Below, piece after piece: positions 26,821-62,000 of a stretch of 64,000 bases of DNA; position 1 is the stretch's first letter, and each line of letters begins with the position of its first letter. The position numbers and the translations under genes were made by a program. Below the pieces are notes generated by a model, which was given only the letters and a program-made list of their open reading frames with translations, ran no database searches and was not told the origin of the DNA. Origin of the DNA: a virus (taxonomy: Duplodnaviria; Heunggongvirae; Uroviricota; Caudoviricetes); IMG/VR virus record IMGVR_UViG_3300009709_000001, positions 317,336 through 381,335 of that record. One strand, 5' to 3'.

Positions 26821-26838
26821 GTGTAGCTCCTTGGGGGT

Positions 26839-26865
26839 GAAAACTGGGGCCCCGAAGGGCCCCAG
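26839..26865 (-). terminator. rho-independent terminator
   Basis: Minus strand ctggggccc-ttcg-gggccccag followed by ttttc, 3 nt after the stop of 26869..27966. Confidence 0.8.
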
Positions 26866-26868
26866 GGG

Positions 26869-27966: not shown

Positions 27967-28021
27967 CGCTTCTTTCTTGGTTGCGGGATAAATCCCTGGT
28001 TAAATTTGTTTAACAGTCTCT

Positions 28022-46923: not shown

Positions 46924-47592
46924 ATGATCAATATTCATTTTTATAAAACATTTTTAGGTAACAAATACTCGAAATGGTATTTGTCTATTATTGTTGCTGC
47001 ACAATCGAAAAATCGTAAAAAATCCGAAGATTGCTATTACGAGCGTCATCATATTATACCCAAATCTATAAATCCTGAGATTTCGAACTTAAAATTAAAT
47101 CCCTGGAATGGAGTATTACTAACCGCGAAAGAGCATTTCATTTGTCATCTTCTTCTTACAAAAATGGCTATAGGAAAAGATAAGAATAAGATGATTTATG
47201 CATTATGGAATCTACGTAATCAGAAAACTAAATCTCAGGACCAGAGATTTACCTCAAATCTATACAACGTATACAAGAAACAGATGCAAGAAGCATTATC
47301 TGTAGATCGAAAAGGTAAATCTCTGGAAGAACGATACGGGATTACTCGTGCATCGGAGATTAAAGCATCCTACCGCACAAGAATCCCTCGTGGGAAAGTT
47401 TCCAATGAAGAAAAGGGTAAACTTTCTGAAAATATGAAAACTCTTCATCAAACCCGGCCTTGGAAAAGATTTATGCAAACCAACGGTGTTCTTCCAAAAA
47501 ATACCTGCCCGCATTGTAATAAAACAATGGATGTCGGTAATTATGGAAGATATCACGGGGACAAATGTAAATTACGCGAGATTAGCAAATAG
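46924..47592 (+). CDS. HNH homing endonuclease (222 aa)
   Basis: RHHIIPKSINPEISNLKLNPWNGVLLTAKEHFICHLLL; C-terminal CPHC...YHGDKC zinc finger; first ATG is 46924 (track start 46909 is TTG); 3' end overlaps the QueE 3' end by 21 nt. Confidence 0.8.
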   Translation: MINIHFYKTFLGNKYSKWYLSIIVAAQSKNRKKSEDCYYERHHIIPKSINPEISNLKLNPWNGVLLTAKEHFICHLLLTKMAIGKDKNKMIYALWNLRNQKTKSQDQRFTSNLYNVYKKQMQEALSVDRKGKSLEERYGITRASEIKASYRTRIPRGKVSNEEKGKLSENMKTLHQTRPWKRFMQTNGVLPKNTCPHCNKTMDVGNYGRYHGDKCKLREISK

Positions 47593-48453
47593 ATGCATTT
47601 GCATTTGCATTCTGTAACCGTGCTCCATACAATATCTACCCACGTATTCGTGATTTTCTTGTATCTTCTGCATATTTAATAATCCCGGTTCGAAGAAATT
47701 AATAACTTCATCAACAGTTGAGCGCTCATCCATTGTGATATTGCCTTTTTCGTTGTGTAGAATTTTAATCTTCTGTGGAAGGCTGTTATACACATTCATC
47801 GGGCTAAGATATACTTCCTTAGTAGGATTATTTCTTTTCCACTCATGTGCCCATTCCGGAATTTGATTGTATGGGCTATCTGTTTCGGCACTAACGACAA
47901 ACTTCAAGCAATCTGCTCTTTCCAAAATTTGTTTGGTAGGAGAAAGATACTTAGTAGCCACACCATTCTTTTCAGCACATTTCGGGCTGCAAACGAGTGT
48001 AACACCTTCAGGAATAGGAAGATTTACAGTACCATTGCTTTCGATTTGTACTGCTCTGAAGTTAGGAACTTGTCTTTCTAGGAATGCTGTAAGGTTTGAT
48101 TGTAGTGTGGGTTCACCACCTGTAATAACCATAACAATGTTCGGGAAACTATATGCCTTCTTATCTGGATGTGCCCAAATAGGTGCTACACCACCTTTGT
48201 CTTCCCAATATTTATAGATCGTGTCACCTACCTTCTTTTCCAGTTCTTCATAAGTCATCCAATCTCCATCATCGAAGAATGTATCACAGAAAGAACAAGC
48301 TAGGTTACATTTTGTCAATCTAATGAATAGTGCAGGAGAACCGGCGTATGGACCCTCGCCTTGAAGTGTAAAGAACATACTTGTAACAAATAAACTATTC
48401 TCTGGTGCATCTTTGAAAAATTTCTGGCCAATAATTTGGTTAGTTCCGAACAT
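47572..48453 (-). CDS. queE: 7-carboxy-7-deazaguanine synthase QueE-like radical SAM enzyme (293 aa)
   Basis: TLQGEGPYAG followed by CNLACSFCDT (CxxxCxxC). Confidence 0.8.
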   Translation of the reverse strand: MFGTNQIIGQKFFKDAPENSLFVTSMFFTLQGEGPYAGSPALFIRLTKCNLACSFCDTFFDDGDWMTYEELEKKVGDTIYKYWEDKGGVAPIWAHPDKKAYSFPNIVMVITGGEPTLQSNLTAFLERQVPNFRAVQIESNGTVNLPIPEGVTLVCSPKCAEKNGVATKYLSPTKQILERADCLKFVVSAETDSPYNQIPEWAHEWKRNNPTKEVYLSPMNVYNSLPQKIKILHNEKGNITMDERSTVDEVINFFEPGLLNMQKIQENHEYVGRYCMEHGYRMQMQMHLFANLA

Positions 48454-48985
48454 CTATTAATTCCTTCATTTCGTTTAGTGATAGAAATAACTTTTCACAG
48501 CTAAAACCATCTTTCTTATATTTGCTATTTTCTAAACACCAGCTTCTTATTGTTGTGTGATAAACACCGTAGAATTTGGCAGCGTGTTCTAGGGATGGAA
48601 ATTTTCCGTCTAGTGTGGTTACCAACATTTTCCATCCTTTTGCATCATCTCTGTCAATTTTGCCGAGAGAACACTCAACTTCTGGAACAACATATTCTCT
48701 AGAAAGGTAATTTATTGCACTTTGTAGAAGAGAAATATCATCCTTGAATAACCCGAGTGCGGTGTTGCAGTCAGTGCATAGTAGACCTCTGATTTTTCCA
48801 GATACATGATTATGATCAACTGCTAGATCTCTTCCGCAATAGTCGACTTGCTGGCAGATGCAACAGACACCATTTTGATCGGATTTTATTGCTTCATATT
48901 GATCGTAGTTTATTCCAAACTTCAAAAGAAGCCCATTTTTCTTTCTTCTTTTTTTAGATCTTTCCGGTGTATTAATTATTCCCAT
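48440..48985 (-). CDS. Endonuclease VII-type (HNH-like) homing endonuclease candidate (181 aa)
   Basis: CCICQ...LAVDHNHVSGKIRGLLCTDCNTALG; C-terminal HTH-like tail; AT-rich. Confidence 0.75.
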   Translation of the reverse strand: MGIINTPERSKKRRKKNGLLLKFGINYDQYEAIKSDQNGVCCICQQVDYCGRDLAVDHNHVSGKIRGLLCTDCNTALGLFKDDISLLQSAINYLSREYVVPEVECSLGKIDRDDAKGWKMLVTTLDGKFPSLEHAAKFYGVYHTTIRSWCLENSKYKKDGFSCEKLFLSLNEMKELIDVRN

Positions 48986-48991
48986 AAAAAT

Positions 48992-49018
48992 CTCCTTGTT
49001 TCTTATTTATACAAGGAG
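48992..49018 (-). promoter_or_regulatory. hairpin sequestering the Shine-Dalgarno of the EndoVII-type gene
   Basis: mRNA CTCCTTG-tataaataagaaa-CAAGGAG-attttt-ATG; the 3' arm contains the AAGGAG RBS. Confidence 0.55.
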
Positions 49019-49023
49019 CTGGT

Positions 49024-49049
49024 AAACACTATAGAAATCTATAGTGTTT
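49024..49049 (-). terminator. 11-bp hairpin overlapping the stop of 49048..49629
   Basis: aaacactatag-aaat-ctatagtgttt; T tract lies within the stem end. Confidence 0.5.
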
Positions 49050-49629
49050 ATTCATCGGTCCCTTTTAACTTTTCAATAATTTTAGAGGATTCCAGCATGA
49101 AAGTCAAGTCATCTGCTGTCAGGGCGCCTTTCTCCTTCGCAAACCGAATTACATCTTCAAAGACTTGATCTCGAATCTTACATTTCAGAGCGTGACTAAT
49201 ACCGAGTTTATTTTCGACACTAAAATTCAGCATCTTTTCAAATTGTCGGGATGCTTCATTGACATCTACTTCGGGCGCCCATTCGACTGATCCATCCTTA
49301 TTCAGACGAACAAGTTCTTTACCTGCGGCAGAATAGATTGTCAACAATGTCTTATCAGTTGCTGAGCTGCTGAATACATATGAAGAAGCTGGCGGAGACG
49401 CCGGCATTGTAAACCAACTCGACGAAACTCCTACGCCACCAGTAAGAATACCACTTGTGAACATTCCGCTGCTACTACCGGTAGTAGTGATCGAGCCCAT
49501 ATTAATTCCCGATGATCCTACTGCACCGACATTAGTCATTGGTGTTCCACTTGCATTACCTGTTGGTGCTGGTGGTACTACATTATTCAACGGAGTCTCT
49601 TGTCTTTTCTTAAAATATTTTTCAAACAT
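49048..49629 (-). CDS. hypothetical protein (193 aa) with Gly/Ser/Thr-rich N-terminal half
   Basis: ORF track. Confidence 0.55.
   Translation of the reverse strand: MFEKYFKKRQETPLNNVVPPAPTGNASGTPMTNVGAVGSSGINMGSITTTGSSSGMFTSGILTGGVGVSSSWFTMPASPPASSYVFSSSATDKTLLTIYSAAGKELVRLNKDGSVEWAPEVDVNEASRQFEKMLNFSVENKLGISHALKCKIRDQVFEDVIRFAKEKGALTADDLTFMLESSKIIEKLKGTDE
49079..49107 (-). promoter_or_regulatory. internal sigma70-type promoter TTGACT-17-TAAAAT upstream of the EndoVII-type gene
   Basis: Minus strand gacTTGACTttcatgctggaatcctcTAAAATtattg, inside the 3' end of 49048..49629. Confidence 0.5.
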
Positions 49630-49913
49630 TATTCCTCCTTGCCAGCTGCCGGTCCATTAACCAGTGCTAGAATAGTTTGATATGCATCATATGCTTCCTT
49701 GAGTGCTGGATATTTCTCATGTAACTCAAGGTGCGGATGTAGAATTAGAAGCCGTGTCTCAATATTGCTGAGGCGTGCTTCTATTTGTGCAAGATTTTCT
49801 TGCGTCTTATCGGTTGTCGTTGTCCAATAAGCGGTTGTGCCTGTGCTGCCGCTCATCAGAACATTGCCAAGTGCACCGTAATTTGTCGGAAGTATTGAAT
49901 TTGTTGTACTCAT
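49629..49913 (-). CDS. hypothetical protein (94 aa)
   Basis: ORF track; 1-nt and 4-nt overlaps. Confidence 0.55.
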   Translation of the reverse strand: MSTTNSILPTNYGALGNVLMSGSTGTTAYWTTTTDKTQENLAQIEARLSNIETRLLILHPHLELHEKYPALKEAYDAYQTILALVNGPAAGKEE

Positions 49914-50188
49914 TTTGAAAACCTTATTTTGAAAACTAATGCATCTTCAGGATTTTCAAAGCCCACGAAGACTATTACATTTCCGTGATTGCTGAGCACT
50001 TTCACATCTGCTGACCCCGACGTATTATCGTGGAGCCAGTAGAGCAATTCTAAATACATTTCCTGCTGATACGGAAACTTGATTATAGTTCTGAATTTTT
50101 CGTCGAAGTTAACCACTAATGGTTCCGGCTCCAGACTTACTGTCGGTTGCTTCCGGAACATATTCCAAAGTTGCGCCATTTTCCCCAT
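49910..50188 (-). CDS. EEDA-helix small protein family member (92 aa)
   Basis: C-terminus VFVGFENPEDALVFKIRFSK; start uncertain (overlaps the QueD-like 3' end). Confidence 0.55.
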   Translation of the reverse strand: MGKMAQLWNMFRKQPTVSLEPEPLVVNFDEKFRTIIKFPYQQEMYLELLYWLHDNTSGSADVKVLSNHGNVIVFVGFENPEDALVFKIRFSK

Positions 50189-50495
50189 CTTCGCTAACCT
50201 CTACGGAAATTTTACGATTTGGATAGGTCTTGCTGATGTAGTCAATTAAGTCTTCAGCAAGCATTTCGCAACTCTTGAAATCTACCTGCAATGTTGCTTC
50301 GGAATACAGAGCTTCGAGTTCTCTCTTAAATAGGATGAACTCGATATCCCTGTCATTGTGAAATACTTCCACTGTAACCCTGAAGTGGAAAATATGTCTG
50401 TGTGGATGTTTTAGAAATTCTACACCTTCTGGTGCATCGGGATACCTATGAATCCCTTCTTTCTGAAATGTTACGAAAATTGTCCGTGAAATCAT
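50109..50495 (-). CDS. queD: QueD/6-pyruvoyl-tetrahydropterin synthase-like protein (128 aa)
   Basis: TFQKEGIHRYPDAPEGVEFLKHPHRHIFHFRVTVEV aligns by eye with the E. coli QueD N-terminus ([30 protein letters not shown], from memory). Confidence 0.55.
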   Translation of the reverse strand: MISRTIFVTFQKEGIHRYPDAPEGVEFLKHPHRHIFHFRVTVEVFHNDRDIEFILFKRELEALYSEATLQVDFKSCEMLAEDLIDYISKTYPNRKISVEVSEDGENGATLEYVPEATDSKSGAGTISG

Positions 50496-50701
50496 TTTAT
50501 TCTTTTTGTCTTAACCTTATACCTAGATTTGAATTCCATCTTCTTTAATTTCCGATAGTATTCTTCGAAAGTATATGGTCGAAAAATCATTGCCGCACCA
50601 ACTGGTGCAAAGCTTGTCTTGTCTTCATGCCACAGAGAAACTAAGCGTCCACTTAGTTTCTCTATGATATATAACTTCTCTGCTTCGGCACGAGTTGTCA
50701 T
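50492..50701 (-). CDS. hypothetical protein (69 aa)
   Basis: ORF track; 4-nt overlap downstream. Confidence 0.5.
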   Translation of the reverse strand: MTTRAEAEKLYIIEKLSGRLVSLWHEDKTSFAPVGAAMIFRPYTFEEYYRKLKKMEFKSRYKVKTKRIK

Positions 50702-51583
50702 TTACTTCTTCTTAGATGCCGCCTTTTTCGCACCCGATTCTTGGGTTTCGGTCGTGCCATCTGCATGAGCATAGAGATCAGCGACTTCCTGCTTCGTCGA
50801 GCTTCCTTGCGAAAGAACAACTTCACTCTTGACTTCTTCATCCGCTTCAGCCTTTAGTTGAGAAGGTGAGGTTGGGTCAAGGCCGAGAGATGCATCGTTC
50901 TGCACGGGTGTCTCGGCCTTCTCAACAGCCTTAACCTGCTTTGCGATCAAATCACTCGGATCGATGTAAGTAATCTCTCGTTCTGGCTCCTTGCGAACAA
51001 CATATGGAGGCATCGGTGTAGGTAATACATCATGAGACGGTGATGCAGAGATATTAACCTGACCGGTAACATCTTCATCAGTCACATAATCTTGCCAATC
51101 AGTGAAACGATTGCTGTCGGTTAATTCAGTGAAATGCCTGCACCATACACCTGGATTAGTTGCCTTGAAATCAATATCATCGATCTTAACCGTTAGATTA
51201 GGACTAGACATTTCGATCTTAGGAATACGAACACTGAGCAAGGGCACGAATAAACGAGATTGCCATACACCAGCACTGAAGATGTTTAAGACATCCTTAT
51301 GTTGATGTGCCTGATAATCGATTGTTACCCAAAAACCACGATCGAGCAAGTGTGTTGCAAGATCATTCCAATTCTTGTTTTCGACATCAGAATTTGCCTC
51401 AACATCAAATGAATGATTTGCGCCAAGGAATACATGCTGTACCTTATATTGGCGAGCATATTTTTCCACTTCTTGTGGACTCTGATATCCGACTACAAAG
51501 AGTGTCTTTTTCGAGTATGCCGGAGTATGTTCAACTTCCGGTCCAATGAAATATTTTGTTTTTTCGTGTCCTGCTCTATTCAT
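50702..51583 (-). CDS. hypothetical protein (293 aa): unknown N-domain + acidic/Lys-rich disordered tail
   Basis: ORF track; no motif recognised; embedded in the deazaguanine gene set. Confidence 0.6.
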   Translation of the reverse strand: MNRAGHEKTKYFIGPEVEHTPAYSKKTLFVVGYQSPQEVEKYARQYKVQHVFLGANHSFDVEANSDVENKNWNDLATHLLDRGFWVTIDYQAHQHKDVLNIFSAGVWQSRLFVPLLSVRIPKIEMSSPNLTVKIDDIDFKATNPGVWCRHFTELTDSNRFTDWQDYVTDEDVTGQVNISASPSHDVLPTPMPPYVVRKEPEREITYIDPSDLIAKQVKAVEKAETPVQNDASLGLDPTSPSQLKAEADEEVKSEVVLSQGSSTKQEVADLYAHADGTTETQESGAKKAASKKK

Positions 51584-51592
51584 AATTTCCTT

Positions 51593-52783
51593 TTAGTATT
51601 TTTCGCGGCCGACGTGCTTTCTATAATCTAGTCCGTTTCGTGCCCACTGTGCGCCGTTACCCTTTTCGCCACCCTCAAGGATATCGATGGTACGGTCAAT
51701 TGTTCCATTCTGCCAATCGCTGACTGCACCAGTTGTAAACTTTGCAGGATTGTTCAGCATTGCGGTTAGCTTTGCTGCGGCATCATCTAAGCTCCACGGA
51801 ATATACAAGTTATTCGCATTATTTGCGAACACTTCCGGGAAACTACGATAAGCTGGGAACAAGGTCAGTGTTCCAAATGTGTCGGCTTCGCTAACAGTGT
51901 TACTTACCCAATCTTGAAGGGCACAGTTGAATAAAACGACACTGTCTGCGACAATTTCGTAATAATCGTTCTTCTTCAGACCGGTATAGACCTTGAAATT
52001 AGCAGTTCCGCTAGATTCCAGGTATTTCGCAAACTCGATGTTTTGCGGATTGTTGCTCTTCAATTCAGGATGTCCAGTCACTACCGCAAATTCCACATCA
52101 GGGTGTGTCTTGAACATTTTCTGTGCGAGCTGCATATAGAAGTCGGGTTGCTTCTCATCATCCCAACGAGCTGCAAACACGACACGTTGTTCACGCGAGG
52201 TAATTGGCTTGATGTACTCAACACGTTCAAGCACTTCTTCTTTGCCAAACGGAAGACCAGTAACATAGATAGGTGCCTTGAATCCTGCGATACGCAGATT
52301 AGCAACCATTTCTTCACTTGCCACAAGGATGCCCGATACAAATTCGTCGATCATCAACTCATAGTTACGCATCCAATGACCCATTCCTTCGCGGTTAACG
52401 AAATCATCGGGATCAATGGATTGTGCAAGACAACGAACATAAACCTTCGGACGATACTTCTTAGGCACCTGGTCCATGATGTACGGTAAACATTCAATGC
52501 CTGGAGTAAACATATCTTCGTAGAAGATAACGTCATTACTTGTGACTTTACCTTCCTTCATCAGCTTGATCAGATTTGCAGTCTGCATCATGCTGTAATA
52601 TGTTCGACCGTGTGCATCAAGTACACTACCGGTAACAATGTTCTTGTCGGCAGTTAATTCTGCACCTTTGACAATCTCGTAGTCGATGCCACGAGCTTGA
52701 AATACACGTTCATTCCAGTCTTGGAGTTGCAGTGTGTATCGAGCTTCGTATGCTTCCAAGCCCATATAGAACAGTTTTTTCAT
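51593..52783 (-). CDS. GT-B-like glycosyltransferase candidate (396 aa)
   Basis: Trimmed to MKKLFYMGLEAY (ATGA overlap with upstream stop); C-terminal half RVVFAARWDDEKQPDFY ... VSEADTFGTLTLFP resembles a GT-B Rossmann domain; size similar to T4 alpha-glucosyltransferase; tentative. Confidence 0.4.
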   Translation of the reverse strand: MKKLFYMGLEAYEARYTLQLQDWNERVFQARGIDYEIVKGAELTADKNIVTGSVLDAHGRTYYSMMQTANLIKLMKEGKVTSNDVIFYEDMFTPGIECLPYIMDQVPKKYRPKVYVRCLAQSIDPDDFVNREGMGHWMRNYELMIDEFVSGILVASEEMVANLRIAGFKAPIYVTGLPFGKEEVLERVEYIKPITSREQRVVFAARWDDEKQPDFYMQLAQKMFKTHPDVEFAVVTGHPELKSNNPQNIEFAKYLESSGTANFKVYTGLKKNDYYEIVADSVVLFNCALQDWVSNTVSEADTFGTLTLFPAYRSFPEVFANNANNLYIPWSLDDAAAKLTAMLNNPAKFTTGAVSDWQNGTIDRTIDILEGGEKGNGAQWARNGLDYRKHVGREKY

Positions 52784-53151
52784 AGGTCTTCCTTGTTGAT
52801 TCCCCATTTTACTTTAAGTGTATGTATATCGTCAAAGGGGCCAGTCATTGGCTGCACTCCGAGAAGTTCATCGGCAATAATGTTAGGCATAATTCGATTA
52901 ATCATTGGAATTCTTATACCCTTAGGCTTTGGAGGGGCCTTAAGTTTTTCGATAATCTTTTCAGCCTCAATTTCCTCTGTTGTCATACCCGCAAGACGCA
53001 ATTCTTCTGCAGCCTCTGCATCAATCTTTTCGGCAAAAATCCTGGCTTGTTCTTCCAGCATATACTTGACGATATCATTATTACTACTGGTAATCGAATC
53101 TATTAATTCTTTCTTGGATTCGTTCCAGTTTTCGAATAATTTCTTTGTCAT
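52780..53151 (-). CDS. 123-aa protein carrying a T4 gp23-type capsid motif
   Basis: INRIMPNIIADELLGVQPMTGP versus T4 gp23 VRRAIPNLIAFDICGVQPMNSP (from memory). Confidence 0.5.
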   Translation of the reverse strand: MTKKLFENWNESKKELIDSITSSNNDIVKYMLEEQARIFAEKIDAEAAEELRLAGMTTEEIEAEKIIEKLKAPPKPKGIRIPMINRIMPNIIADELLGVQPMTGPFDDIHTLKVKWGINKEDL

Positions 53152-53913: not shown

Positions 53914-54145
53914 GTCCGTCCTTTATAATATCGAATATAGTGCTCTTATACTCGTATTCAGTCGCAAAGAATATCTTGTTCATGATCATATCAAATCTTG
54001 TCCAATAGGGTTGATGAACTTGTTTTCTTAGTACAAATTCTAACCAAACTGTTTCTTTGTCATTGATCTTAACTGGATGCCAAGCAAACCAGCGGTGCCA
54101 TACTAAGCGTGGATTTTCTGACGGATTATAAACTTTCCATCTCAT
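53900..54145 (-). CDS. hypothetical protein (81 aa)
   Basis: ORF track. Confidence 0.5.
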   Translation of the reverse strand: MRWKVYNPSENPRLVWHRWFAWHPVKINDKETVWLEFVLRKQVHQPYWTRFDMIMNKIFFATEYEYKSTIFDIIKDGHEKS

Positions 54146-54978
54146 GGTTCAAAGTCCTTTGCCTGCTCGTGTGTTCTTTTAAAGCCGGATGCAGTCTTGT
54201 GGCCACCGCCTCCAAAGATTTCGGCAATCTCAGCAACATTCATACCTTCTGCAGTCGAACGTAGACCAAATTCTCTATGTGTGGCAGTGTCGTAATAATA
54301 CGCTGCGAAAGGCTCGTTTTTCGCCAAAATTGAGCAAATATCAGAACCAAACTGATAGGGAACGTTAGCAGCTGGAACATTAAACCCTGCAATATTCAGA
54401 CGTCTAACGACAACGCCAAGTAATTCCTTGACATTTTTCATGTTGGCACGCTCGATAGCTGTACCATCTCTGATTTGCTCTTCAATGCTTTGTTCCGCAA
54501 TCATGTCCCAGTTTTCGAAGTTGTATTCGTAGCTGAAAATGCTCGCGTTGACTTCACGGCAGCCCGGAATTAAAAACTTCCAACGATCCCTATCATCGAC
54601 ATAGCGGATAAACGGTGGAACTTCTAGATCCTTGAAGAAATACTTCCAAGCCAGCATTGCACCGCTTTCAGTATTCTTTGGACTGTAGAAAGATTCGAAT
54701 TTAGGATCCGAAAAACCTTCCATGTCACGAATTGCTGTTTCGTGATGGTCAATGTGAATAACCTGTTTTGCGTCACGAACAATTTGTTCCATGATCGGAC
54801 GCTTATAGCTGAAGTCGACGATGTAGACAATCTTGTCTTTTACATCAGGCGGCTCTTCTTTGTAGACGCCAGGATGATATACAATACTTTCATCCTTGCC
54901 GTGTGCTGCTCTGACTACCCATGCAGCAGTAAATCCATCAATGCATTTGCCGTGATAGATACATACAATTCCACTCAT
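54142..54978 (-). CDS. DHH/DHHA1-family phosphoesterase (278 aa)
   Basis: HGKCIDGFTAAW, HIDHHETA, FGGGGHKTASGF. Confidence 0.8.
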   Translation of the reverse strand: MSGIVCIYHGKCIDGFTAAWVVRAAHGKDESIVYHPGVYKEEPPDVKDKIVYIVDFSYKRPIMEQIVRDAKQVIHIDHHETAIRDMEGFSDPKFESFYSPKNTESGAMLAWKYFFKDLEVPPFIRYVDDRDRWKFLIPGCREVNASIFSYEYNFENWDMIAEQSIEEQIRDGTAIERANMKNVKELLGVVVRRLNIAGFNVPAANVPYQFGSDICSILAKNEPFAAYYYDTATHREFGLRSTAEGMNVAEIAEIFGGGGHKTASGFKRTHEQAKDFEP

Positions 54979-55175: not shown

Positions 55176-55396
55176 TTCTTTCCTTTGTGTCGAACCCGTG
55201 ATTCGCGCCTAATCTTTTTCGGCATAACATAAAAGTCGGGTTTCATACCAGAAATTAGAGAATGAGAATAAATCATCCCGTTCATCATACCATGCATGTA
55301 CTGGGAGGGTTCACTTGCGGAGGACTGTAAACAATCCTCCTGTATGCCCATCATTTCCTCTAATTTTTTCAGGCGCTTTTGCAGCTCGTCATTCAT
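55172..55396 (-). CDS. hypothetical protein (74 aa; start uncertain)
   Basis: ORF 55172..55477 trimmed to MNDELQKRLKKLEE to limit the overlap with the DpdA-like gene; no clear RBS. Confidence 0.4.
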   Translation of the reverse strand: MNDELQKRLKKLEEMMGIQEDCLQSSASEPSQYMHGMMNGMIYSHSLISGMKPDFYVMPKKIRRESRVRHKGKK

Positions 55397-56954
55397 CGAT
55401 CTTAGAATGATCATCTTGACCTTGATCTGCCATTTCTTCACCAGATGGTGTTTCAGCACGATGGCCATCGATATCACCCCACATTACTGTGTTGGTCATT
55501 GTAGTAGTGGTTTTCTTATCGCCAAAACTTACAAAGTCGAGGAATTTCTGATTCTCTGCCAACATATTGTAAGGGTCTTTGTTGGAAGGGTCAAGTAATT
55601 CCTCAACAAAGGAGTTGAAATACAAAATTGAGTTTGGAACAAAGTTACTAATCGGTGTACTGCTCTTTTTATCACCGGGGCGATAATCTTTCCAACTAAT
55701 TTTAGGCTTCAAAATATATTCGATGTCTGCAAGACGATTAATTTCTTGCACAGCCTGAATATGATTGTATACATTATGTGCCATGACAAGAGCATAAGTG
55801 GTTGTATCCCAACTTGTCTTGCCTTCTTTGCCATGCTTGTTCAAATCGCCGGGCCCCATCACACACATATCAGATGCGTATAATCTTTCCATAATCGGTC
55901 CTTGGAACGGCATTGCAATTTTCTTATCTTTCAAATCCTTGCTATCAATGCCCCTGCCCATCGCATAGGTAAGTTGATCGGGTTTGAAATAATTGTAATT
56001 GTAGGAGAGTGCATAACCACCAGCCGCAACAAAAGGTGATGCAGCGTCGAAGCTGATATTGATATTAGGATTATCGTATTTCTTCAACAGACGCTCGATA
56101 CTAGACAAATAACATGCCCAATCTAAACGACCAATACCCAGAAAGTGAATCCAATCTTTACCCTCTAACAGTCCATCTCTGCGCAAGTCAAGAATACGTT
56201 CAAGAACAGTTTTCATGTTCTTCATGTTGATACCTGCAAATGCCCAACCTTCTAATGTTCTATCCTTGGAATAGCCCATAGCTTCAACACTCGATGGAAT
56301 ACTGAAGTGTTTTACTGTTTCATACCAATCACGAGAATTGCTATTATCACTACCCGAAAGAACATTAAGAAACTTAGTTGCTCCCGGAACCCGATTCTTC
56401 ATGAAATAATGCAAATTGTATTCGGTAACATCCAGACAGTCCTGAAACTTAGTAAGTCCAGTTTTTGCACTCAATGGTGGAAGAGCAGCAAATGCCGGCA
56501 CGTCCAATGTCATTGACCAATCAGCAGTATGTTCTAGGTAACGTAGAATTTCTTCACGTAGCTTATCACCTGCGTCTGTCATGACTGTTGACCAATCAAG
56601 CTTAATAACGCCGGTTGCAATCTGGAAGCCGCCAGAGTCGCCAATCAGTACGGTGTCATCTCCACGCTTGTGAATCATCGGTTCACGATCGTCACAACGT
56701 GATAAATTTCTATCAGCATGTCCTGCTGAATACAAACCCCACTTGTAGTGAAAATAACTATCTTCTGATTTTAGGAAATCGAGTCCTTGAATACCATATT
56801 CAAATTTTTCAGGCACACGTTCTTTCGGTACAAAGTTCTCGTCTGCAAGATCTTTACCGAGATGAGTGGTATAAAAACCACTAATGGCGGGAAGGTATTT
56901 TGCCCAACCGCCTTCGATATGTCTTTCGGTAAAATCTACTCTATTTTTTGTCAT
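55389..56954 (-). CDS. dpdA: DpdA-like tRNA-guanine-transglycosylase-family protein (521 aa), putative DNA 7-deazaguanine transglycosylase
   Basis: LIGDSGGFQIATG (TGT DSGGFQ), WSMTLDVPAF, WIHFLGIGRLDW. Confidence 0.7.
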   Translation of the reverse strand: MTKNRVDFTERHIEGGWAKYLPAISGFYTTHLGKDLADENFVPKERVPEKFEYGIQGLDFLKSEDSYFHYKWGLYSAGHADRNLSRCDDREPMIHKRGDDTVLIGDSGGFQIATGVIKLDWSTVMTDAGDKLREEILRYLEHTADWSMTLDVPAFAALPPLSAKTGLTKFQDCLDVTEYNLHYFMKNRVPGATKFLNVLSGSDNSNSRDWYETVKHFSIPSSVEAMGYSKDRTLEGWAFAGINMKNMKTVLERILDLRRDGLLEGKDWIHFLGIGRLDWACYLSSIERLLKKYDNPNINISFDAASPFVAAGGYALSYNYNYFKPDQLTYAMGRGIDSKDLKDKKIAMPFQGPIMERLYASDMCVMGPGDLNKHGKEGKTSWDTTTYALVMAHNVYNHIQAVQEINRLADIEYILKPKISWKDYRPGDKKSSTPISNFVPNSILYFNSFVEELLDPSNKDPYNMLAENQKFLDFVSFGDKKTTTTMTNTVMWGDIDGHRAETPSGEEMADQGQDDHSKIDE

Positions 56955-57372: not shown

Positions 57373-58125
57373 TTAGCTCTTGCTTGCTGGAAGAATGTAG
57401 GAATACTTACCAATGCCACTATCGATCTCAATCTTCATTGCACCCATGTCTGAGAAGTACATGGTTGTATCCTTGGCAGTTTCGCTCAACTTCAAAATGC
57501 TGAGAACTTGTGCAAGAGGCCAAGACCACTGATGCTTTAAGCTACCGGTAACATTTTCGGCAAACGGAACAACAGTTCTATCAGTTGGACCTGTACCTAC
57601 AGAGAAGTTCAATGTGTTATTTGCATCGACACTTGCAATGAAGCGCTTTTCAAATCCACCCAATACACCCGAGAAGTAAGAAAGTTCTGCAATCTTCTTC
57701 TTTTCTGGAGTTACAGTCAGATTCCAAGTTGCACCCTTGAATGGCGGAACTTTAATCTGCTCACTAACCATAGCTTCACTCATAAAGCGATAGTTAGATA
57801 CGTGGCCTGTGCCGCTTGCGAATTTGATTTCAGTTGGCATTACATCGCCATTGCGTGTTTCTGTAACGACTTCGACCTTTGCTTTATCTCCAGCAAATGG
57901 TGGGAAGTCGATATAACCCTTGAGAATGCCCATTCTGGACAATCCAATAGTTTTATCAAGTCCATCGATTGGTTGATACATGCTGCCGAAAATAACGACA
58001 GTCTTATCAGCATCGATTGCTTCAATCTTTGCATCGTTAGCTTCGCCAACGATTTTAACCATATCAATAAAGCCCAGCGAACTGGTGTGCTTCACGATAT
58101 CTTTCATGTTATCTAAAATGCTCAT
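57373..58125 (-). CDS. putative sliding clamp (gp45-like, 250 aa)
   Basis: Size and position immediately downstream of PolB, own promoter; no diagnostic motif, so tentative. Confidence 0.4.
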   Translation of the reverse strand: MSILDNMKDIVKHTSSLGFIDMVKIVGEANDAKIEAIDADKTVVIFGSMYQPIDGLDKTIGLSRMGILKGYIDFPPFAGDKAKVEVVTETRNGDVMPTEIKFASGTGHVSNYRFMSEAMVSEQIKVPPFKGATWNLTVTPEKKKIAELSYFSGVLGGFEKRFIASVDANNTLNFSVGTGPTDRTVVPFAENVTGSLKHQWSWPLAQVLSILKLSETAKDTTMYFSDMGAMKIEIDSGIGKYSYILPASKS

Positions 58126-58199: not shown

Positions 58200-61151
58200 T
58201 CAAAACGCGCTGAAGTCGAATAATGTTTCAAGGTGTGCGTGTTCTTTATTAGTTCTCGAAAGATCCCAATTCAAAACACCTAGAAGATTCTTAACCTTCT
58301 GATCGACAATCGAACCCATCATTTCATCACTGTCAAATGGGAGGTTCAAGAACCAATCTGGTAAATGGGCTTCATCAACCGGATATGCAATGCTACTCAA
58401 ATTGTTTTCGGCATTGATCTTGAGTTTACAAACAATAATCTTCTGTCCGTCAATAATCCTCATTGCATGCTGGTCACGATGAATTTCTTTCAATCGATTC
58501 CACGCAAGGCTTGCTGTAACGTGTCCTGGTACATGCAAGTTACCGACTGTAATACCTTTTGCTTTCTGAATACCTGCAAGTTCAATCTTATCACGATAGT
58601 GAGTTAGCTTGTTAACTGCTCGCGGAGTTCCTTGTTTCCAAGGCTTCAAATCTTCAAACTGTTCTTTAAACAGGCGAATTTTCTCAATAACGGCATTTTC
58701 GCCCTTGTCTAGTAGAGTATCAAGTAAGATCTCAGACAAGAATTTTTGCACGAATTTAGGTGTATCTGCACGCTTCAAATCGAGACCCATAGCCTTGACT
58801 TTACCCGGCTTTCCGTCGACATCATATCTAATGCCGTCCTTATCGTACATCAAGCAAGCATATCTCTTCTTAACAATCCAAATACCTGTTTCGGACACAG
58901 TTTCACGAGACGATGCAATAACACCAGTCGAACGCTTTTGTGGCACATTCAATTTCTTGTTCAAGAACTCGGGGAATGTAGCAGAAACTGCTTTTGCCAA
59001 ATCATTGTAAAGATCGACAATGCTTTCCTTTGTCCACATAATATCACCACGTGCAATTTCTTCACGTAGAATTGGATATGCAGAGAAATAGCACGAGTCC
59101 GTATCACCATAAACAATTGCCTTGCCGTAATGATTATATTCACCAGCAATCATTTCATTTGTCTGAGCTGCCATGTGCTTCGTGATTGTACGACCAGTAA
59201 GCGTTGTGGATTGTCCTAGACGTTGATCGAAGAATCGACTACCTGCATTCAACAAAGCGCCGTATGCCGAGTTCAAGTTAATCTTCTTAACGAGCTGACG
59301 TTTGTCCCAGAAGCCAACAATACGCTTCAAATCCTTTTGATCGCGATGAATTGCTTTACCGTCCTTGACCATAAGGTTGTGTTGATTCATGTACTGAACA
59401 ACTCTCTTCTTATGACCTTCGGCGATAATTTCCTTCAGTTTCTTCGGCTTGTACGATTCCGATTCTGAATAGGGATTAGCCTTCAATTCTACATCACTGA
59501 TATCATCATTTGTGAACAATTCTGCCGGAACTAGAGTACCTTCAATTTTGGAGTTATCCTGAATGTCTTCATAGTTGGTCATAATACCTTGAAGCGTCTT
59601 ACGCTCGGTATACCAACGTGTCAGAATTCCCGGAATAATACCGTCAATATCTGTTCTAAAGATTGTACCGTTTGCACTGATACACCATGGCTGTCCACTC
59701 TTGAAAATCAAGTCATGCAATTCCTTGCCAGTGACTTCAAATTCAGAGCCGTCTTCCATATCAAGAGTTAGCTTATTGGCAATATCTTGATTATAAAAGT
59801 CTTCCATTTCTAGAACGTTGAATCTATCGTTCCACCAGTTAGCGAATGTGTATTTCGCACCTTTCTTTTCCCAAATGCCGATTGCATCGTTTGTACGATC
59901 TAGACGAATCTGTCCAACAATTGTTTCTGGACTCATATTCAGTGCTCTAAGAACCGACGGATACAGAGACTTCATGTCAGTTGAACCAATCCAGCGATGG
60001 AATCCCTTTCTTGGAGTTGCAACCCAGCCACCTGCAGCACGATTTGCTTCTTCGTCGCTACCACGCTTCTTATCTGGACAGATAAGTCCGCGATTGTGTG
60101 CTTCGACAAGTACAGCCTGGTCAGTAACTGCAACCGCACCCATTGTGGTCTGAATTAGAACACAGTTGGCATGTGCAATCGAATTTGCAAGATCCATGAA
60201 CTGGAGCTTCTTATCTAATCGATCAAGAAGTCGCGTATCCTGGATGTTATACTGTAAGAACTGCTCAAAGTCGTCATTGTAGAGTTCGTCAAGCGTACCT
60301 TCGTATTGTACCTTAGTTTCGTTAAGTTCAATTTCCGAGATAGCATTCAACGCATAACTATGTCTTTCTTCATAGTTGTATTTCTTGTAAAGCTGAAGAT
60401 AATCAACGTGAACACGACCAATAAGGTCGTAAGTTGGTTGAGTCTTGCCGCCGCGTTCAAATTCACGAACTTTAGGTTGCTGGTCCCACAGACAAAGTCT
60501 GCGAGCTTCATGCTTACCAAGAACACGCTTGATACGATTTACAACATAAGGAATATCGTATGCTTCACTATTCCATCCACTAAGAATGTCTGCATCTTCG
60601 ACAACGTCAATGAATGCATTAAGCATGTCTGCTTCGTTCTTGAATAGAACTACATTACCTACCTTATTTGCAATTTCATTAGCTTCATCCCAGGTCAATG
60701 TCTCTGGTGGCAATGCCAAGCAGATAATTTCATCTAGCCATTGCAGATGAACAGAAATTGAAGTGATGTAATTTAGTGCTTCGCTTGCTTCTGACCAGCC
60801 CGACTCTTTATCAAAGCTGGTTTCAATGTCGAAGAATGCAATGTTAAGGGAAGGAGCATCTTGCCCCTGATAATTGTGTTCAATACAGCGGAAGATTGGA
60901 TCTACATCCGATTCCCATGTTTTCGTATTGCTTGCCACAGTTTTCATTAGCTTCTGCTTTTCAGCATAGGTGCGTGGCGCTACCTTTTTTACGGAATTAC
61001 CGTAGATGGTCTTATTAAGACCCTTCGGGTCATTAATGAAGAAGTGATAGTCAGGTTGGAATTCCCGGTAAACTCTCTTACCGTTAACACGTTCAACAAT
61101 TTTGATTACTTCGCTATCACCGCCTCTTTTGAACAAGGCGTCAATATACAT
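58200..61151 (-). CDS. family B DNA polymerase (T4 gp43-like, 983 aa)
   Basis: Exo I FFDIETS, Exo II WNSEAYDIPY, Exo III YNIQDTRLL, motif A DMKSLYPS, motif B KINLNSAYG, motif C YGDTDS; uninterrupted. Confidence 0.97.
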   Translation of the reverse strand: MYIDALFKRGGDSEVIKIVERVNGKRVYREFQPDYHFFINDPKGLNKTIYGNSVKKVAPRTYAEKQKLMKTVASNTKTWESDVDPIFRCIEHNYQGQDAPSLNIAFFDIETSFDKESGWSEASEALNYITSISVHLQWLDEIICLALPPETLTWDEANEIANKVGNVVLFKNEADMLNAFIDVVEDADILSGWNSEAYDIPYVVNRIKRVLGKHEARRLCLWDQQPKVREFERGGKTQPTYDLIGRVHVDYLQLYKKYNYEERHSYALNAISEIELNETKVQYEGTLDELYNDDFEQFLQYNIQDTRLLDRLDKKLQFMDLANSIAHANCVLIQTTMGAVAVTDQAVLVEAHNRGLICPDKKRGSDEEANRAAGGWVATPRKGFHRWIGSTDMKSLYPSVLRALNMSPETIVGQIRLDRTNDAIGIWEKKGAKYTFANWWNDRFNVLEMEDFYNQDIANKLTLDMEDGSEFEVTGKELHDLIFKSGQPWCISANGTIFRTDIDGIIPGILTRWYTERKTLQGIMTNYEDIQDNSKIEGTLVPAELFTNDDISDVELKANPYSESESYKPKKLKEIIAEGHKKRVVQYMNQHNLMVKDGKAIHRDQKDLKRIVGFWDKRQLVKKINLNSAYGALLNAGSRFFDQRLGQSTTLTGRTITKHMAAQTNEMIAGEYNHYGKAIVYGDTDSCYFSAYPILREEIARGDIMWTKESIVDLYNDLAKAVSATFPEFLNKKLNVPQKRSTGVIASSRETVSETGIWIVKKRYACLMYDKDGIRYDVDGKPGKVKAMGLDLKRADTPKFVQKFLSEILLDTLLDKGENAVIEKIRLFKEQFEDLKPWKQGTPRAVNKLTHYRDKIELAGIQKAKGITVGNLHVPGHVTASLAWNRLKEIHRDQHAMRIIDGQKIIVCKLKINAENNLSSIAYPVDEAHLPDWFLNLPFDSDEMMGSIVDQKVKNLLGVLNWDLSRTNKEHAHLETLFDFSAF

Positions 61152-61402
61152 TAGCCGAGACCTCCAGCCTTGTATAGTTCTTCAAGTTCGTCCCAATCTT
61201 CACGGGCGTCATTCATTCGACCCTTTTGAACGATCTTGATTAGCTTATTCAACTGTGCTGGTTTGACTTCTAGTTCCTCGGCGATTGCCTTCACTGTTTC
61301 ATTGAGACCTTGCTTCAGGTCTTCGCATTCCTGAAGAACTGATACACCATCTTGAACGAGTTGTTTCAGACGTGTGATATTTTCTTGGCTAAGTTTCGCC
61401 AT
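61151..61402 (-). CDS. hypothetical protein (83 aa)
   Basis: ORF track; 1-nt overlap with PolB. Confidence 0.55.
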
Positions 61403-62000
61403 TTTTATTTTTCTCCTGCTCTAATTTTCTTTTAGCCCATCGCTCTTTCATCGATGCACTCTGTTTCATTTTTGCTTCAGGCGTCTGTGGTTGTCCCTTA
61501 TTATAAGGCACTCTACCAGACATATTCTTACTCATTGATTCTTTTGCGGATTCTGTGTGTTTGCGACCCAACATCGGGTGCTGCAATTTAGATCTTGCTT
61601 CGGTTGCTTTTTCATAAACCCAGTCGGGTTGTCTTTTGCCGAAAAATGAGCTATTTTCACCAGAGTGTTGCTGTCTTAATTTTTCTCTAATTTCCGGTGT
61701 TTTAGCATCAGACATTTTCTGTTTGGTTTCAGCAGTATGTTTTCTTCCCGAGGCGCCTTCACCACCGTCGGTTAAATTTCTAAGAATACCTGTTCCGATA
61801 TCTTTTCTGCCATACCAACGAATATATCTTCGTTCTAGTGCAAATGCACCTATTTCTGTAAGATTAGACTCGAGTATAATAATCCGAAATTTATCCGGTG
61901 GGACATTTACAGTATGTCGACCGAGAAATCTTTTACCTGATCCTTTACCGATATAATAAGGAGTATTATCTACTCTAAGATAAGCGTAAACATAGAACAT
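61389..62000 (-). CDS. GIY-YIG homing endonuclease (203 aa)
   Basis: [24 protein letters not shown]; NUMOD3-like repeats ([20 protein letters not shown]). Confidence 0.8.

Follow-up and report, generated by a model that had tools for sequence, protein, structure and literature searches.

Two adjacent genes in a 64,000-nucleotide stretch of phage DNA (the window), encoding a 396-residue protein, GT396, and a 293-residue protein, were found to be part of a conserved gene module with which phages replace the guanine of DNA by a 7-deazaguanine. We lean towards a scheme in which the module swaps guanine for 7-deazaguanine, GT396 would add a hexose to that base, and the conserved N-terminal domain of the 293-residue protein (N-dom) would more likely be an accessory of the DNA-guanine transglycosylase DpdA.

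The two genes

Both genes are on the minus strand, the gene for the 293-residue protein at positions 50702-51583 and that for GT396 at 51593-52783. The translation of the former begins MNRAGHEKTKYFIGPEVEHTPAYSKKTLFVVGYQSPQEV and contains the segment HVFLGANHSF. The longest open reading frame for GT396 extends to 52807 (404 residues), but an AAGGAAG Shine-Dalgarno-like sequence lies 6-7 nt upstream of the ATG at 52783, the start that was also chosen in the public-collection gene call P0121 (396 residues, 100% identical), and all homologues have MKKLF or MRKLF in common at their start. The gap between the GT396 stop and the start of the downstream gene is 9 nt (51584-51592). The 293-residue protein had 2068 metagenomic homologues at E ≤ 1e-3, and its family comprised 542 clusters at 50% identity among 1.84 billion representatives, while GT396 had more than 7976 homologues, with 74-88% identity in the best 120 listed. 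Conservation was column-specific in the alignments of both families, and both open reading frames are genuine genes rather than chance ones. The coordinates, the lengths and the 9-nt spacing given in an earlier note on this DNA were thus confirmed, each protein having thousands of metagenomic homologues.

No near-identical DNA was found among GenBank phages and the phage is known from metagenomes alone. Many metagenomic homologues of the module were on contigs of 240-390 kb.

Fold and family of GT396

The AlphaFold model of GT396 (pLDDT 75) consisted of two Rossmann-like halves, the arrangement of a GT-B enzyme, in which two Rossmann-like alpha/beta domains flank a cleft that holds the active site. 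The earlier note had assigned this fold to the C-terminal half; the fold itself was upheld, but in the model the entire protein, both halves, adopts it. Pfam PF00534 (Glycos_transf_1) matched with E 1.9e-4 and 21.4 bits, below the curated cut-off of 26.4, which is a point against the hexose model, and PF13692 scored 17 bits against a cut-off of 27; no other Pfam family matched at E ≤ 0.01. Some homologues at 75-79% identity have a precomputed PF00534 match. A PDB sequence search with the profile of the GT family gave no match.

The residues that were invariant down to 20% identity were E10, E13, R15, Y16, T17, D90, D127, E142, R206, E210, K211, P213, E299, S314 and E317. R206, E210-K211-x-P213 and E299 are in the C-terminal, donor-side half, and R206, E210, K211, P213, E299 and E317 may correspond to the R/K and EX7E donor-binding positions of GT4 enzymes. 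When the protein databank was searched by structure, 57 other chains, mostly GT4 enzymes, outranked the T4 glucosyltransferases. The comparison with T4 AGT and BGT that the earlier note had proposed therefore held for the GT-B fold and failed for nearest kinship, and GT396 did not show the combination of AGT or BGT as nearest structures with a dCMP hydroxymethylase that marks a T4-type DNA glucosyltransferase. As judged from the model, GT396 is a GT-B, GT4-like enzyme, a putative nucleotide-sugar transferase and, being GT4-like, probably retaining.

Neighbouring deazaguanine genes

The gene at 50109-50495 (minus strand; phrog_17812, E 1e-33), called QueD-like in the earlier note, proved to be of the DpdL type, a QueD paralogue, since its motif LKHPHRHIF fits LxxxHRHxF instead of the CxxxHGH of QueD. 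DpdL was defined by this motif and by its occurrence with FolE, QueD, QueE and DpdA in the absence of QueC, and was proposed to be a 7-carboxy-7-deazaguanine decarboxylase (PMC10516641). The window protein is 50% identical to the DpdL of phage ACP17 and 38% identical to that of phage phiST. An open reading frame of 69 residues between DpdL and the 293-residue gene (50492-50701, minus strand) was called in this window alone and had no tblastn match in 88 loci; in the gene calls of loci L089 and L090, N-dom is followed by a 132-residue, DpdL-sized gene with nothing in between. It is probably not a member of the module.

The radical SAM enzyme QueE, 7-carboxy-7-deazaguanine synthase, is encoded at 47572-48453 on the minus strand (phrog_2076, E 5e-54) with the CxxxCxxC-type motif CNLACSFC; the NCBIfam QueE models matched at E 4e-22, below their equivalog cut-offs. 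QueC was found neither among the scanned window proteins nor in the annotated neighbour families.

The 521-residue product of 55389-56954 (minus strand), designated DpdA521, contains GDSGGFQ and is 52% identical to EST35_0316 of phage PA5oct, which adjoins the PA5oct GT and DpdL genes. It had no Pfam TGT match and no PDB sequence match. In an hhalign profile-profile comparison with the family that holds ACP17 DpdA3, the probability was 89% (E 2e-6, 191 columns). With the DSGG[FL]Q motif and homology to a named subfamily, the sequence identifies DpdA521 as a distant member of the DpdA/TGT superfamily and a presumptive DNA-guanine transglycosylase. A 250-residue protein (57373-58125, minus strand) conserved between PolB and DpdA was present in 58 loci. 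It belongs to a PHROG family of unknown function, is 31% identical (E 4e-43) to a Phosso protein annotated by its depositors as a sliding clamp, and is itself a probable sliding clamp.

Linkage to the deazaguanine pathway

By profile search, 86 of 89 loci had DpdL no more than 10 kb from the GT. The two genes were no more than 1 kb apart in 58 loci, and every phage record with a GT match at E ≤ 1e-5 (17 of 17) also contained DpdL. The earlier note had named co-occurrence with the deazaguanine genes as a check on its proposal, and these counts do not refute it. The linkage was retained in at least five gene orders (DpdA..GT-Ndom-DpdL, DpdA-Ndom-DpdL-GT, DpdA-GT-DpdL, GT-TGT-DpdL and DpdL-GT), at GT identities as low as 20-25%, and the module occurs in six unrelated cultured phage groups, PA5oct, ACP17, BUDD, Phosso, BCSR5 (a Burkholderia phage) and BUCT-ZZ01. 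The DNA of PA5oct is restriction-resistant and has a modified G of undetermined chemistry (PMC12191111). In E. coli, ACP17 DpdL and DpdA3 by themselves produced no dDG, and in the view of the authors further enzymes may be required (PMC10516641).

A target that is neither a nucleic acid nor a base, such as the host envelope or a virion protein, would require the position of the GT to be an accident of synteny, against which the co-occurrence with DpdL and DpdA argues. Moreover, two conserved peptide patterns found no relatives of the close GT396 family in 185,579 representative bacterial and archaeal genomes, and direct reading of the sequence disclosed no membrane or secretion feature. We regard such a target as highly improbable.

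Another possibility, which the earlier note had raised as a second target, is that the GT glycosylates a different modified base, for example a pyrimidine with a hydroxymethyl or hydroxy group, of the kind found in T4, RB69 or HY126, and merely shares the neighbourhood. All characterised phage DNA glycosyltransferases target pyrimidines (PMC13326640, PMC12783734), and the module lies in a region of replication genes where unrelated modification genes could collect. However, no thymidylate-synthase-like hydroxymethylase or hydroxylase was present in 40 further window proteins or in the annotated conserved neighbour families of 89 regions, a scan that covered 64 kb of the 385-kb genome. In addition, the GT was kept beside DpdL or DpdA across many rearrangements in the six unrelated phage groups, and PA5oct behaves as a G-modified phage. 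A pyrimidine target thus gained no support and is very unlikely.

The 293-residue protein

The conserved N-dom of about 170 residues (51068-51583, minus strand) is followed by a lineage-specific, acidic, lysine-rich tail (50702-51067, minus strand, stop codon included). The earlier note had described an N-terminal domain of about 190 residues without a recognised motif; the conserved domain stood, whereas the size was revised. Neither Pfam, PHROG nor NCBIfam had a family that matched the protein, its family profile drew nothing from the PDB sequences, and the sole match in a BFVD search with N-dom was the ACP17 homologue. In other lineages the homologous proteins consist of this domain alone, at 160-190 residues. 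F12, G14, E16, V17, T27, L28, F29, G32, L80, D136, N143, G145, W163 and D169 were invariant across lineages and E18, H50, P121, N129 and K133 nearly so. The model (pLDDT 71) was alpha/beta and partial-barrel-like, good for residues 1-120 and poor for residues 121-160, and because the poor region coincides with many of the invariant residues, no chemistry can be read from it. The model suggests a separate, enzyme-like alpha/beta domain of an orphan family.

N-dom had neither the 4Fe-4S cysteine triad nor the homology expected of QueE or another radical SAM enzyme (hhalign probability against QueE 0.2%), and it was not a split-off piece of a TGT (5% and 0.3% against two DpdA families). Among 150 representatives no informative domain fusion was found, the longer proteins adding low-complexity tails alone. 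A 183-residue protein in the same gene slot of clusters with the other DpdA type was unrelated to N-dom and had a weak T4 endonuclease V-like (Pyr_excise) match.

The tail is confined to the jumbo-phage sublineage of the window, the proteins of other lineages stopping just past FTDWxxYxxD. It contains the motifs N[DQ]xxLGLDxxxxSxLKP, which is doubled in some homologues, and AAEAYAEGxxxDPL...KKxK. Residues 176-293 have a pI of 4.9 and a K-rich C-terminus ending KKAASKKK, in agreement with the acidic, lysine-rich tail of the earlier description. Every module protein, DpdA included, is acidic, so that isoelectric points are uninformative on DNA binding.

The earlier note had treated the two genes as a pair. 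This did not survive the comparison of loci: of 67 loci, N-dom adjoined the GT in 14 and came directly after DpdA in 36, it occurred together with the DpdA521 subfamily in 63 loci, and it was present in none of the 14 loci with the other DpdA type. Since N-dom travels with the DpdA521 subfamily, it more likely serves base exchange than sugar tailoring. One could argue instead that N-dom is the tailoring partner of the GT, modifying the attached sugar or preparing the acceptor, because every genome in this sample that has N-dom also has a member of the GT family and in the sublineage of the window the two genes are 9 nt apart. Yet all 14 loci with the other DpdA type bear the GT, the GT-bearing clusters of BUCT-ZZ01, BUDD and Phosso lack N-dom, and in PA5oct it is 28 kb away from the DpdA-GT-DpdL cluster. 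A tailoring partnership is therefore rather improbable, and we retain N-dom as a putative DpdA accessory.

Sugar supply

Of 87 loci, 71 encode the UDP-glucose 4-epimerase GalE no more than 10 kb from the GT, and in 43 the two genes are immediate neighbours. GalE scored 293 and 311 bits, above the 262 that the NCBIfam equivalog model requires. Its position beside the GT in most relatives suggests that the donor would be UDP-galactose or UDP-glucose. In some sublineages there are also DegT-like aminotransferases, more SDR enzymes and a candidate GT-A-like protein, for which no family was matched. Counter to the hexose model, no GalE was found in the window, on its 385,394-bp contig among the best 120 homologues listed, or in its nearest relatives.

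Proposed pathway

In the proposed pathway, FolE, QueD and QueE would produce 7-carboxy-7-deazaguanine, which DpdL is thought to decarboxylate, and the DpdA-like transglycosylase would exchange the base into DNA, probably with N-dom as its accessory. The most likely role of GT396 would be to take the hexose of a UDP-hexose donor and attach it to the 7-deazaguanine base. The transfer could follow insertion of the base by DpdA and so take place on DNA, in the manner of T4 alpha- and beta-glucosyltransferases on 5-hydroxymethylcytosine and of the phage HY126 pathway on 5-hydroxycytosine, or it could take place on the free base, as HuiG acts on a preQ0 derivative. A polymerase-like C-terminal tail, present on several further DNA-modifying enzymes of these phages, is missing from the GT396 family, an absence equally compatible with a free base and with DNA as the acceptor. 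A counterpoint is that 7-deazaguanine has no hydroxyl, so the sugar would have to be placed on N2 (as in huimycin), O6, a ring carbon, or the carboxyl if it is not removed.

It is also conceivable, if unlikely, that the GT acts on a small molecule only and leaves no sugar in DNA, the acceptor being free 7-deazaguanine, a pterin intermediate, or the 7-carboxyl, whose glycosyl ester would serve, with DpdL, to activate or handle the compound. The tightest linkage of the GT is with DpdL, of the T-fold family that binds free pterins and purines, and the polymerase-like tail missing from GT396 is carried by DpdA3-type enzymes and by the second GT of BUCT-ZZ01 (447 residues), which is related to GT396 in the donor half only (probability 75%). 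On the other hand, to keep a dedicated GalE, and amino-sugar genes as well in some lineages, would be expensive if the sugar went onto a transient intermediate. Because phiST makes plain dDG with DpdL and without such a GT within 9 kb of it, the GT is dispensable for the basic pathway, which also counts against the hexose model. TGT-family enzymes require N9-H and read the N1/N2 face; a base glycosylated on that face or at N9 could not be inserted by a TGT, and a free-base product would therefore be a dead end unless the sugar were on a C7 substituent.

Transfer of a hexose to the 7-deazaguanine base remains the preferred reading. Its fuller form, which we put forward tentatively and at somewhat under even chance, is that an abundant lineage of aquatic jumbo phages, like PA5oct, ACP17, BUDD/X1, Phosso, BCSR5 and BUCT-ZZ01, has glycosylated 7-deazaguanine in its virion DNA. 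On that view a purine analogue bearing a sugar would be known for the first time from DNA of any kind, a GT4-like enzyme would make it with sugar supplied through a phage GalE, and the 170-residue protein of orphan fold would be a new DNA-transglycosylase accessory.

Significance

Hypermodifications of phage DNA decide which restriction, CRISPR and modification-dependent defences are escaped or triggered. To our knowledge, the sugar decorations of DNA are confined to pyrimidines and the 7-deazaguanine modifications of DNA to small C7 substituents. The earlier note stated that, to its author's knowledge, no sugar-bearing 7-deazaguanine was known in DNA, and no report of one was found in the literature searched. 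If correct, a sugar on 7-deazaguanine would unite the DNA glycosylation and deazaguanine lines in a new chemical class, would explain the G modification of PA5oct, a jumbo phage that is a therapeutic candidate, and would possibly explain the failure of DpdL and DpdA3 alone to reconstitute dDG in E. coli. The module is common, with thousands of metagenomic homologues, and testable in the six cultured phage groups; 7-deaza-dGTP is commercially available, so that DNA substrates can be made by PCR. N-dom represents a large family without known relatives, and its genetic partner, DpdA, is clear.

Comparison with known systems

The T4 alpha- and beta-glucosyltransferases are, like GT396, phage-encoded GT-B proteins of about 350-400 residues. 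They use a UDP-hexose donor and decorate a base that is already modified, protecting the DNA, and it is in these respects that GT396 is proposed to resemble them. There is no sequence similarity between them and GT396, to which the 57 mostly GT4 chains are a better match, and the T4 acceptor is a pyrimidine, 5-hydroxymethylcytosine, whereas the pathway linked to GT396 makes a purine analogue and no hydroxymethylase was seen in the scanned window proteins. Phage HY126 (glycosyltransferase PDB 9iqz) has arabinosyl-5-hydroxycytosine in its DNA, again a pyrimidine acceptor unlike that proposed here. Its system also includes a pathway that supplies UDP-arabinose and a flavin hydroxylase as partner, neither of which was seen here.

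The Cellulophaga phage phiST, whose DNA contains 2'-deoxy-7-deazaguanosine, has FolE, QueD, QueE, DpdL and a distant DpdA and no QueC, as here (PMC10516641). It differs in that neither the GT nor N-dom is encoded within 9 kb of DpdL and its DNA carries the plain base.

GTDC1 is a GT4-type GT-B enzyme. QTMAN/GTDC1 and QTGAL, which form mannosyl- and galactosyl-queuosine in animal tRNA, glycosylate a 7-deazaguanine nucleoside that is already part of a nucleic acid (PMC12518689). Their acceptor, however, is the cyclopentenediol hydroxyl of queuosine, in RNA and not DNA; these phages cannot build the queuosine side chain because they have no QueC, QueF, QueA or QueG. QTMAN/GTDC1 combines an N-terminal DUF3524-type domain with Glycos_transf_1, and GT396 had no match to the GTDC1 N-terminal domain at Pfam E ≤ 0.01.

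HuiG, of huimycin biosynthesis, belongs to an actinomycete secondary-metabolite cluster in which QueC is present and DpdA and DNA play no part, and its acceptor is free O-methylated preQ0. Nevertheless HuiG, like the dapiramicin glycosyltransferases, is a GT4-type enzyme encoded beside FolE, QueD and QueE, as in the GT396 module, and it does glycosylate a 7-deazaguanine base, placing GlcNAc on the 2-amino group of the 7-deazaguanine-derived acceptor (PMC7439116; 10.64898/2026.04.15.718813).

The two genes and the fold of the glycosyltransferase

Both open reading frames described in the earlier note were found, and both are on the minus strand. The first (50702-51583) encodes a 293-aa protein with the N-terminal sequence quoted in that note and an acidic, Lys-rich tail (residues 176-293, pI 4.9), while the second, 9 nt away at 51593-52783, encodes a 396-aa protein designated GT396. 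The start at 52783 is better than that of the longest reading (52807, 404 aa) because it is preceded by AAGGAAG and because the identical public gene call P0121 and all homologues begin there. Neither ORF arises by chance, since the 293-aa protein has 2068 homologues (E ≤ 1e-3; 542 clusters at 50% identity) and GT396 more than 7976. Contigs of 240-390 kb carry many of the homologues, and the one to which the window belongs measures 385,394 bp. No DNA similar to the window was present among 50,697 GenBank phage records.

The sole Pfam match of GT396, Glycos_transf_1, was below threshold, and searches of PHROGs, NCBIfam and PDB sequences returned nothing useful. The match list was headed by GT4 enzymes, which are retaining. 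Matches included sucrose-phosphate synthase (6kih, score 23.8), PimB' (3okc, 22.9), BshA (6n1x, 22.6), a chlorovirus glycosyltransferase (3oy2, 22.2), UDP-glucose:tetrahydrobiopterin glucosyltransferase (5zer, 19.2) and the glycosyltransferase of phage HY126 (9iqz, 17.0). T4 alpha-glucosyltransferase (1y6f, 14.4), to which the earlier note likened the protein in size, ranked 58th; the resemblance is no more than generic. The assignment of a GT-B fold was right, except that the fold spans the whole protein and not the C-terminal half alone. An alignment that took in the most distant relatives (20-25% identity) showed invariant residues in both halves, namely an N-terminal LE-x-x-E-x-RYT loop, D90, D127 and E142 in the acceptor half, and R206, E210, K211, P213, E299 and E317 in the donor half. 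GT396 forms a branch of its own, new and clearly bounded, within a known fold.

Linkage to the deazaguanine genes

The neighboring gene at 50109-50495 (minus strand), formerly read as QueD-like, encodes a QueD paralogue whose LKHPHRHIF sequence fits the defining motif of DpdL, LxxxHRHxF; in phage phiST, DpdL is the proposed 7-carboxy-7-deazaguanine decarboxylase (PMC10516641). The window protein shares 50% identity with the DpdL of phage ACP17. The 521-aa DpdA-like protein (DpdA521; 55389-56954, minus strand) went undetected in Pfam and PDB sequence searches; it has a GDSGGFQ motif and matched the family that includes ACP17 DpdA3 (profile comparison probability 89%, E 2e-6), which bears out its assignment. 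QueE (47572-48453, minus strand) was identified by PHROG and NCBIfam matches, and no FolE, QueD or QueC was found among the window proteins scanned.

Two further genes lie close to GT396. A 123-aa ORF directly upstream (52780-53151, minus strand) matches the profile of the T4 major capsid protein (Pfam Gp23, E 3e-9; PHROG major head protein) over its N-terminal 40 residues alone. This stand-alone N-terminal piece of a capsid protein lies amid replication genes and keeps its position in the closest relatives, L089 and L090 (gene call with PF07068), and in L014 and L016. Between DpdA and GT396, a DHH/DHHA1 phosphoesterase (54142-54978, minus strand; phrog_4771, E 2e-87) is confined to the window's sublineage.

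In all six cultured phages compared, the glycosyltransferase (GT) gene is located within the deazaguanine genes. The gene orders are DpdA-GT-DpdL...QueE in PA5oct, FolE-Ndom-DpdA3-GT-DpdL-QueE in ACP17 (Ndom being the conserved domain of the 293-aa protein), FolE...GT-TGT-DpdL-QueE in BUDD, DpdL-GT-x-FolE...QueE in Phosso, QueE-PRT-x-QueD-FolE-GT447-TGT-DpdL-GT in BUCT-ZZ01 and DpdL...GT-DpdA-like-x-QueE in BCSR5. When 80 IMG/VR loci were gathered and all ORFs clustered, a conserved module containing both genes recurred: PolB - clamp-like - DpdA - Ndom - DpdL - GT - GalE - (PRT) - FolE - (x) - QueE. Sublineages arrange GT, DpdL, Ndom and DpdA differently, yet keep the set together. Each of the 17 phage records matched by GT (E ≤ 1e-5) also contains DpdL, and a profile search located DpdL within 10 kb of GT in 86/89 loci; the others were one phage seen twice (L047/L048) and a contig ending 700 nt from GT. 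Conversely, phiST, RHph_I1_18, Ahp1 and Bakedbeans have DpdL and no GT396-family glycosyltransferase within 9 kb. The GT is therefore an add-on to a DpdL-type pathway, hardly ever found apart from DpdL. This linkage makes an envelope or protein target unrelated to the module unlikely. A pyrimidine as a second modified base, the other target envisaged, found no support in the scanned window proteins or in the annotated families of neighboring ORFs.

In the L047/L048 phage, the only GT-bearing phage lacking DpdL, the DpdL slot is filled by a 340-aa protein (L047:6782-7804, L048:8969-9991) that has a DxD-like motif and ends in a polymerase-like tail, PSLEDLFS; the deazaguanine of this phage may differ, perhaps being the carboxy form, and bear two sugars. 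In Vibrio phage Bakedbeans (gp176, L093:8215-9366), DpdL makes up the last 120 residues of a 383-aa protein, and the N-terminal 260 residues have no assigned identity. In 40 loci (L009-L088) the module includes a 160-aa phosphoribosyltransferase (Pfam Pribosyltran), which also occurs in L001 (4093-4554) and L006 and in BUCT-ZZ01 bears the annotation xanthine-guanine PRT. Its role might be to salvage guanine that DpdA sets free, or to make a deazaguanine nucleotide.

Sugar supply

The commonest additional neighbor is a 320-aa SDR protein, found within 10 kb of GT in 71/87 loci and directly beside it in 43. Two members of this family score above the equivalog cut-off that NCBIfam sets for GalE, UDP-glucose 4-epimerase, and the linkage argues that the glycosyltransferase consumes a UDP-hexose. 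Some sublineages have additional DegT-type aminotransferases, further SDR enzymes and a candidate GT-A-like protein, so labeled from reading of its sequence and without a Pfam match. GalE is absent throughout the 64 kb of the window, as it is in the closest relatives (GT 88% identical, same gene order), and none of the best 120 homologues lay on the window's own contig. The donor would consequently have to be host-derived in this phage.

In close relatives, GalE lies between DpdL and QueE (e.g. L003:11170-14836). In the window (48454-50108) and its nearest relatives, this place is taken by small ORFs of 92 and 94 aa and a Gly/Ser-rich one of 193 aa, none with an annotated function, so GalE seems to have been lost from the sub-clade. 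An endonuclease VII/HNH gene (48440-48985) is present in the window and not in its relatives.

The 293-aa protein

Outside the window's sublineage, homologues of the N-terminal domain (N-dom, 170 aa) stand alone as proteins of 160-190 aa whose sequence stops directly after FTDWxxYxxD. The tail of ~120 residues, an addition specific to the lineage, has two short conserved motifs, N[DQ]xxLGLD (at times duplicated) and AAEAYAEG..DPL..KK. In N-dom, E16, E18, H50, K133, D136 and N143 are kept in all lineages, as are several Gly, Phe and Trp residues. The model was confident over residues 1-120, with alternating strands and helices, and poor over 121-160. A BFVD search retrieved the ACP17 homologue alone, and N-dom is an orphan family. 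Homology to QueE was considered and rejected: the profile comparison probability was 0.2% and the single Cys is not invariant, so any likeness is at most at the level of the fold.

The 293-aa and 396-aa proteins do not form a fixed pair. N-dom immediately follows DpdA in 36/67 loci and touches GT in 14/67, and its genetic partner is therefore DpdA rather than GT. It accompanies DpdA521 in 63 loci and is missing from 14/14 loci of the other DpdA type (DpdA3/TGT2), ACP17 being an exception, where the N-dom gene precedes a DpdA3. In PA5oct, N-dom is 28 kb from the DpdA-GT-DpdL cluster.

In DpdA3/TGT2-type clusters, the slot that belongs to N-dom in other clusters, here between TGT2 and DpdL, is filled by a ~183-aa protein unrelated to it (L040, L042-L045, L049-L051; also L001:10778-11350). 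Its match to T4 endonuclease V (Pyr_excise, E 6.5e-4) is weak and below cut-off. The TGT is closely preceded by a DnaQ-like exonuclease.

Other features of the window

The G+C content of positions 26001-28000 is 0.606 against a background of ~0.41. This stretch, with ORFs at 25642-26820 (weak TPR match) and 26869-27966 (AAA/STAND-type NTPase), looks like a recently acquired island. The window also encodes an RtcB RNA ligase (35619-36884, E 6e-129), a DUF2201 metallopeptidase with a VWA-like domain (18257-19456) and, near the latter, an AAA ATPase (21484-22710). Homing-endonuclease-type genes are abundant among 40 scanned proteins (NUMOD3 in five, HNH in three, endonuclease VII in one), for example at 46924-47592, 48440-48985 and 61389-62000.

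Proposed reaction and comparison with known systems

We infer that GT396 transfers a hexose to a 7-deazaguanine base. The sugar could be attached to the 2-amino group, as in huimycin and dapiramicin, to the carboxyl group, should the base retain it, or to a ring carbon, and transfer might occur after insertion of the base into DNA or on the free base. The strongest rival explanation is that the enzyme acts purely on a small molecule. In its favor, the GT396 family has no polymerase-like C-terminal tail, which also leaves the free base as an acceptor for the proposed hexose transfer.

Such tails were observed elsewhere. The window PolB (58200-61151) ends in a hydrophobic-acidic tail, HLETLFDFSAF, and those of its relatives in FQTLFEW, LSTFFEF or SLESLFG. 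A (S/T)LE(E/D)LFG tail ends 10/14 DpdA3/TGT2-type transglycosylases, and similar tails end the second, 447-aa GT4-like glycosyltransferase of BUCT-ZZ01, the 340-aa protein of L047/L048 and some DpdA521 proteins (VMNEFFEF). Besides the window PolB, tail-bearing sites are L001:6010-7353, L001:7346-8596, L007:9109-10422 and L047:6782-7804. The tails resemble the clamp-binding tail of T4/RB69 polymerase, which suggests that the DNA modifiers bearing them ride on the sliding clamp.

No description of a sugar-bearing 7-deazaguanine in DNA turned up in the literature search. PA5oct DNA contains a modified G of undetermined chemistry (PMC12191111), and ACP17 DpdL and DpdA3 alone gave no 2'-deoxy-7-deazaguanosine in E. 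coli (PMC10516641); both results fit, and do not prove, a pathway with more steps than described so far. HuiG, a GT4-type enzyme encoded beside FolE, QueD and QueE, glycosylates a preQ0 derivative in huimycin (PMC7439116; 10.64898/2026.04.15.718813), a precedent for a sugar on the 2-amino group. Phage HY126 combines DNA containing a glycosylated base (PMC13326640) with a GT4-like glycosyltransferase (9iqz), which would fit a step after insertion. If hexose transfer to the deazaguanine is right, the product would extend the phage DNA hypermodifications known so far by one more variant.
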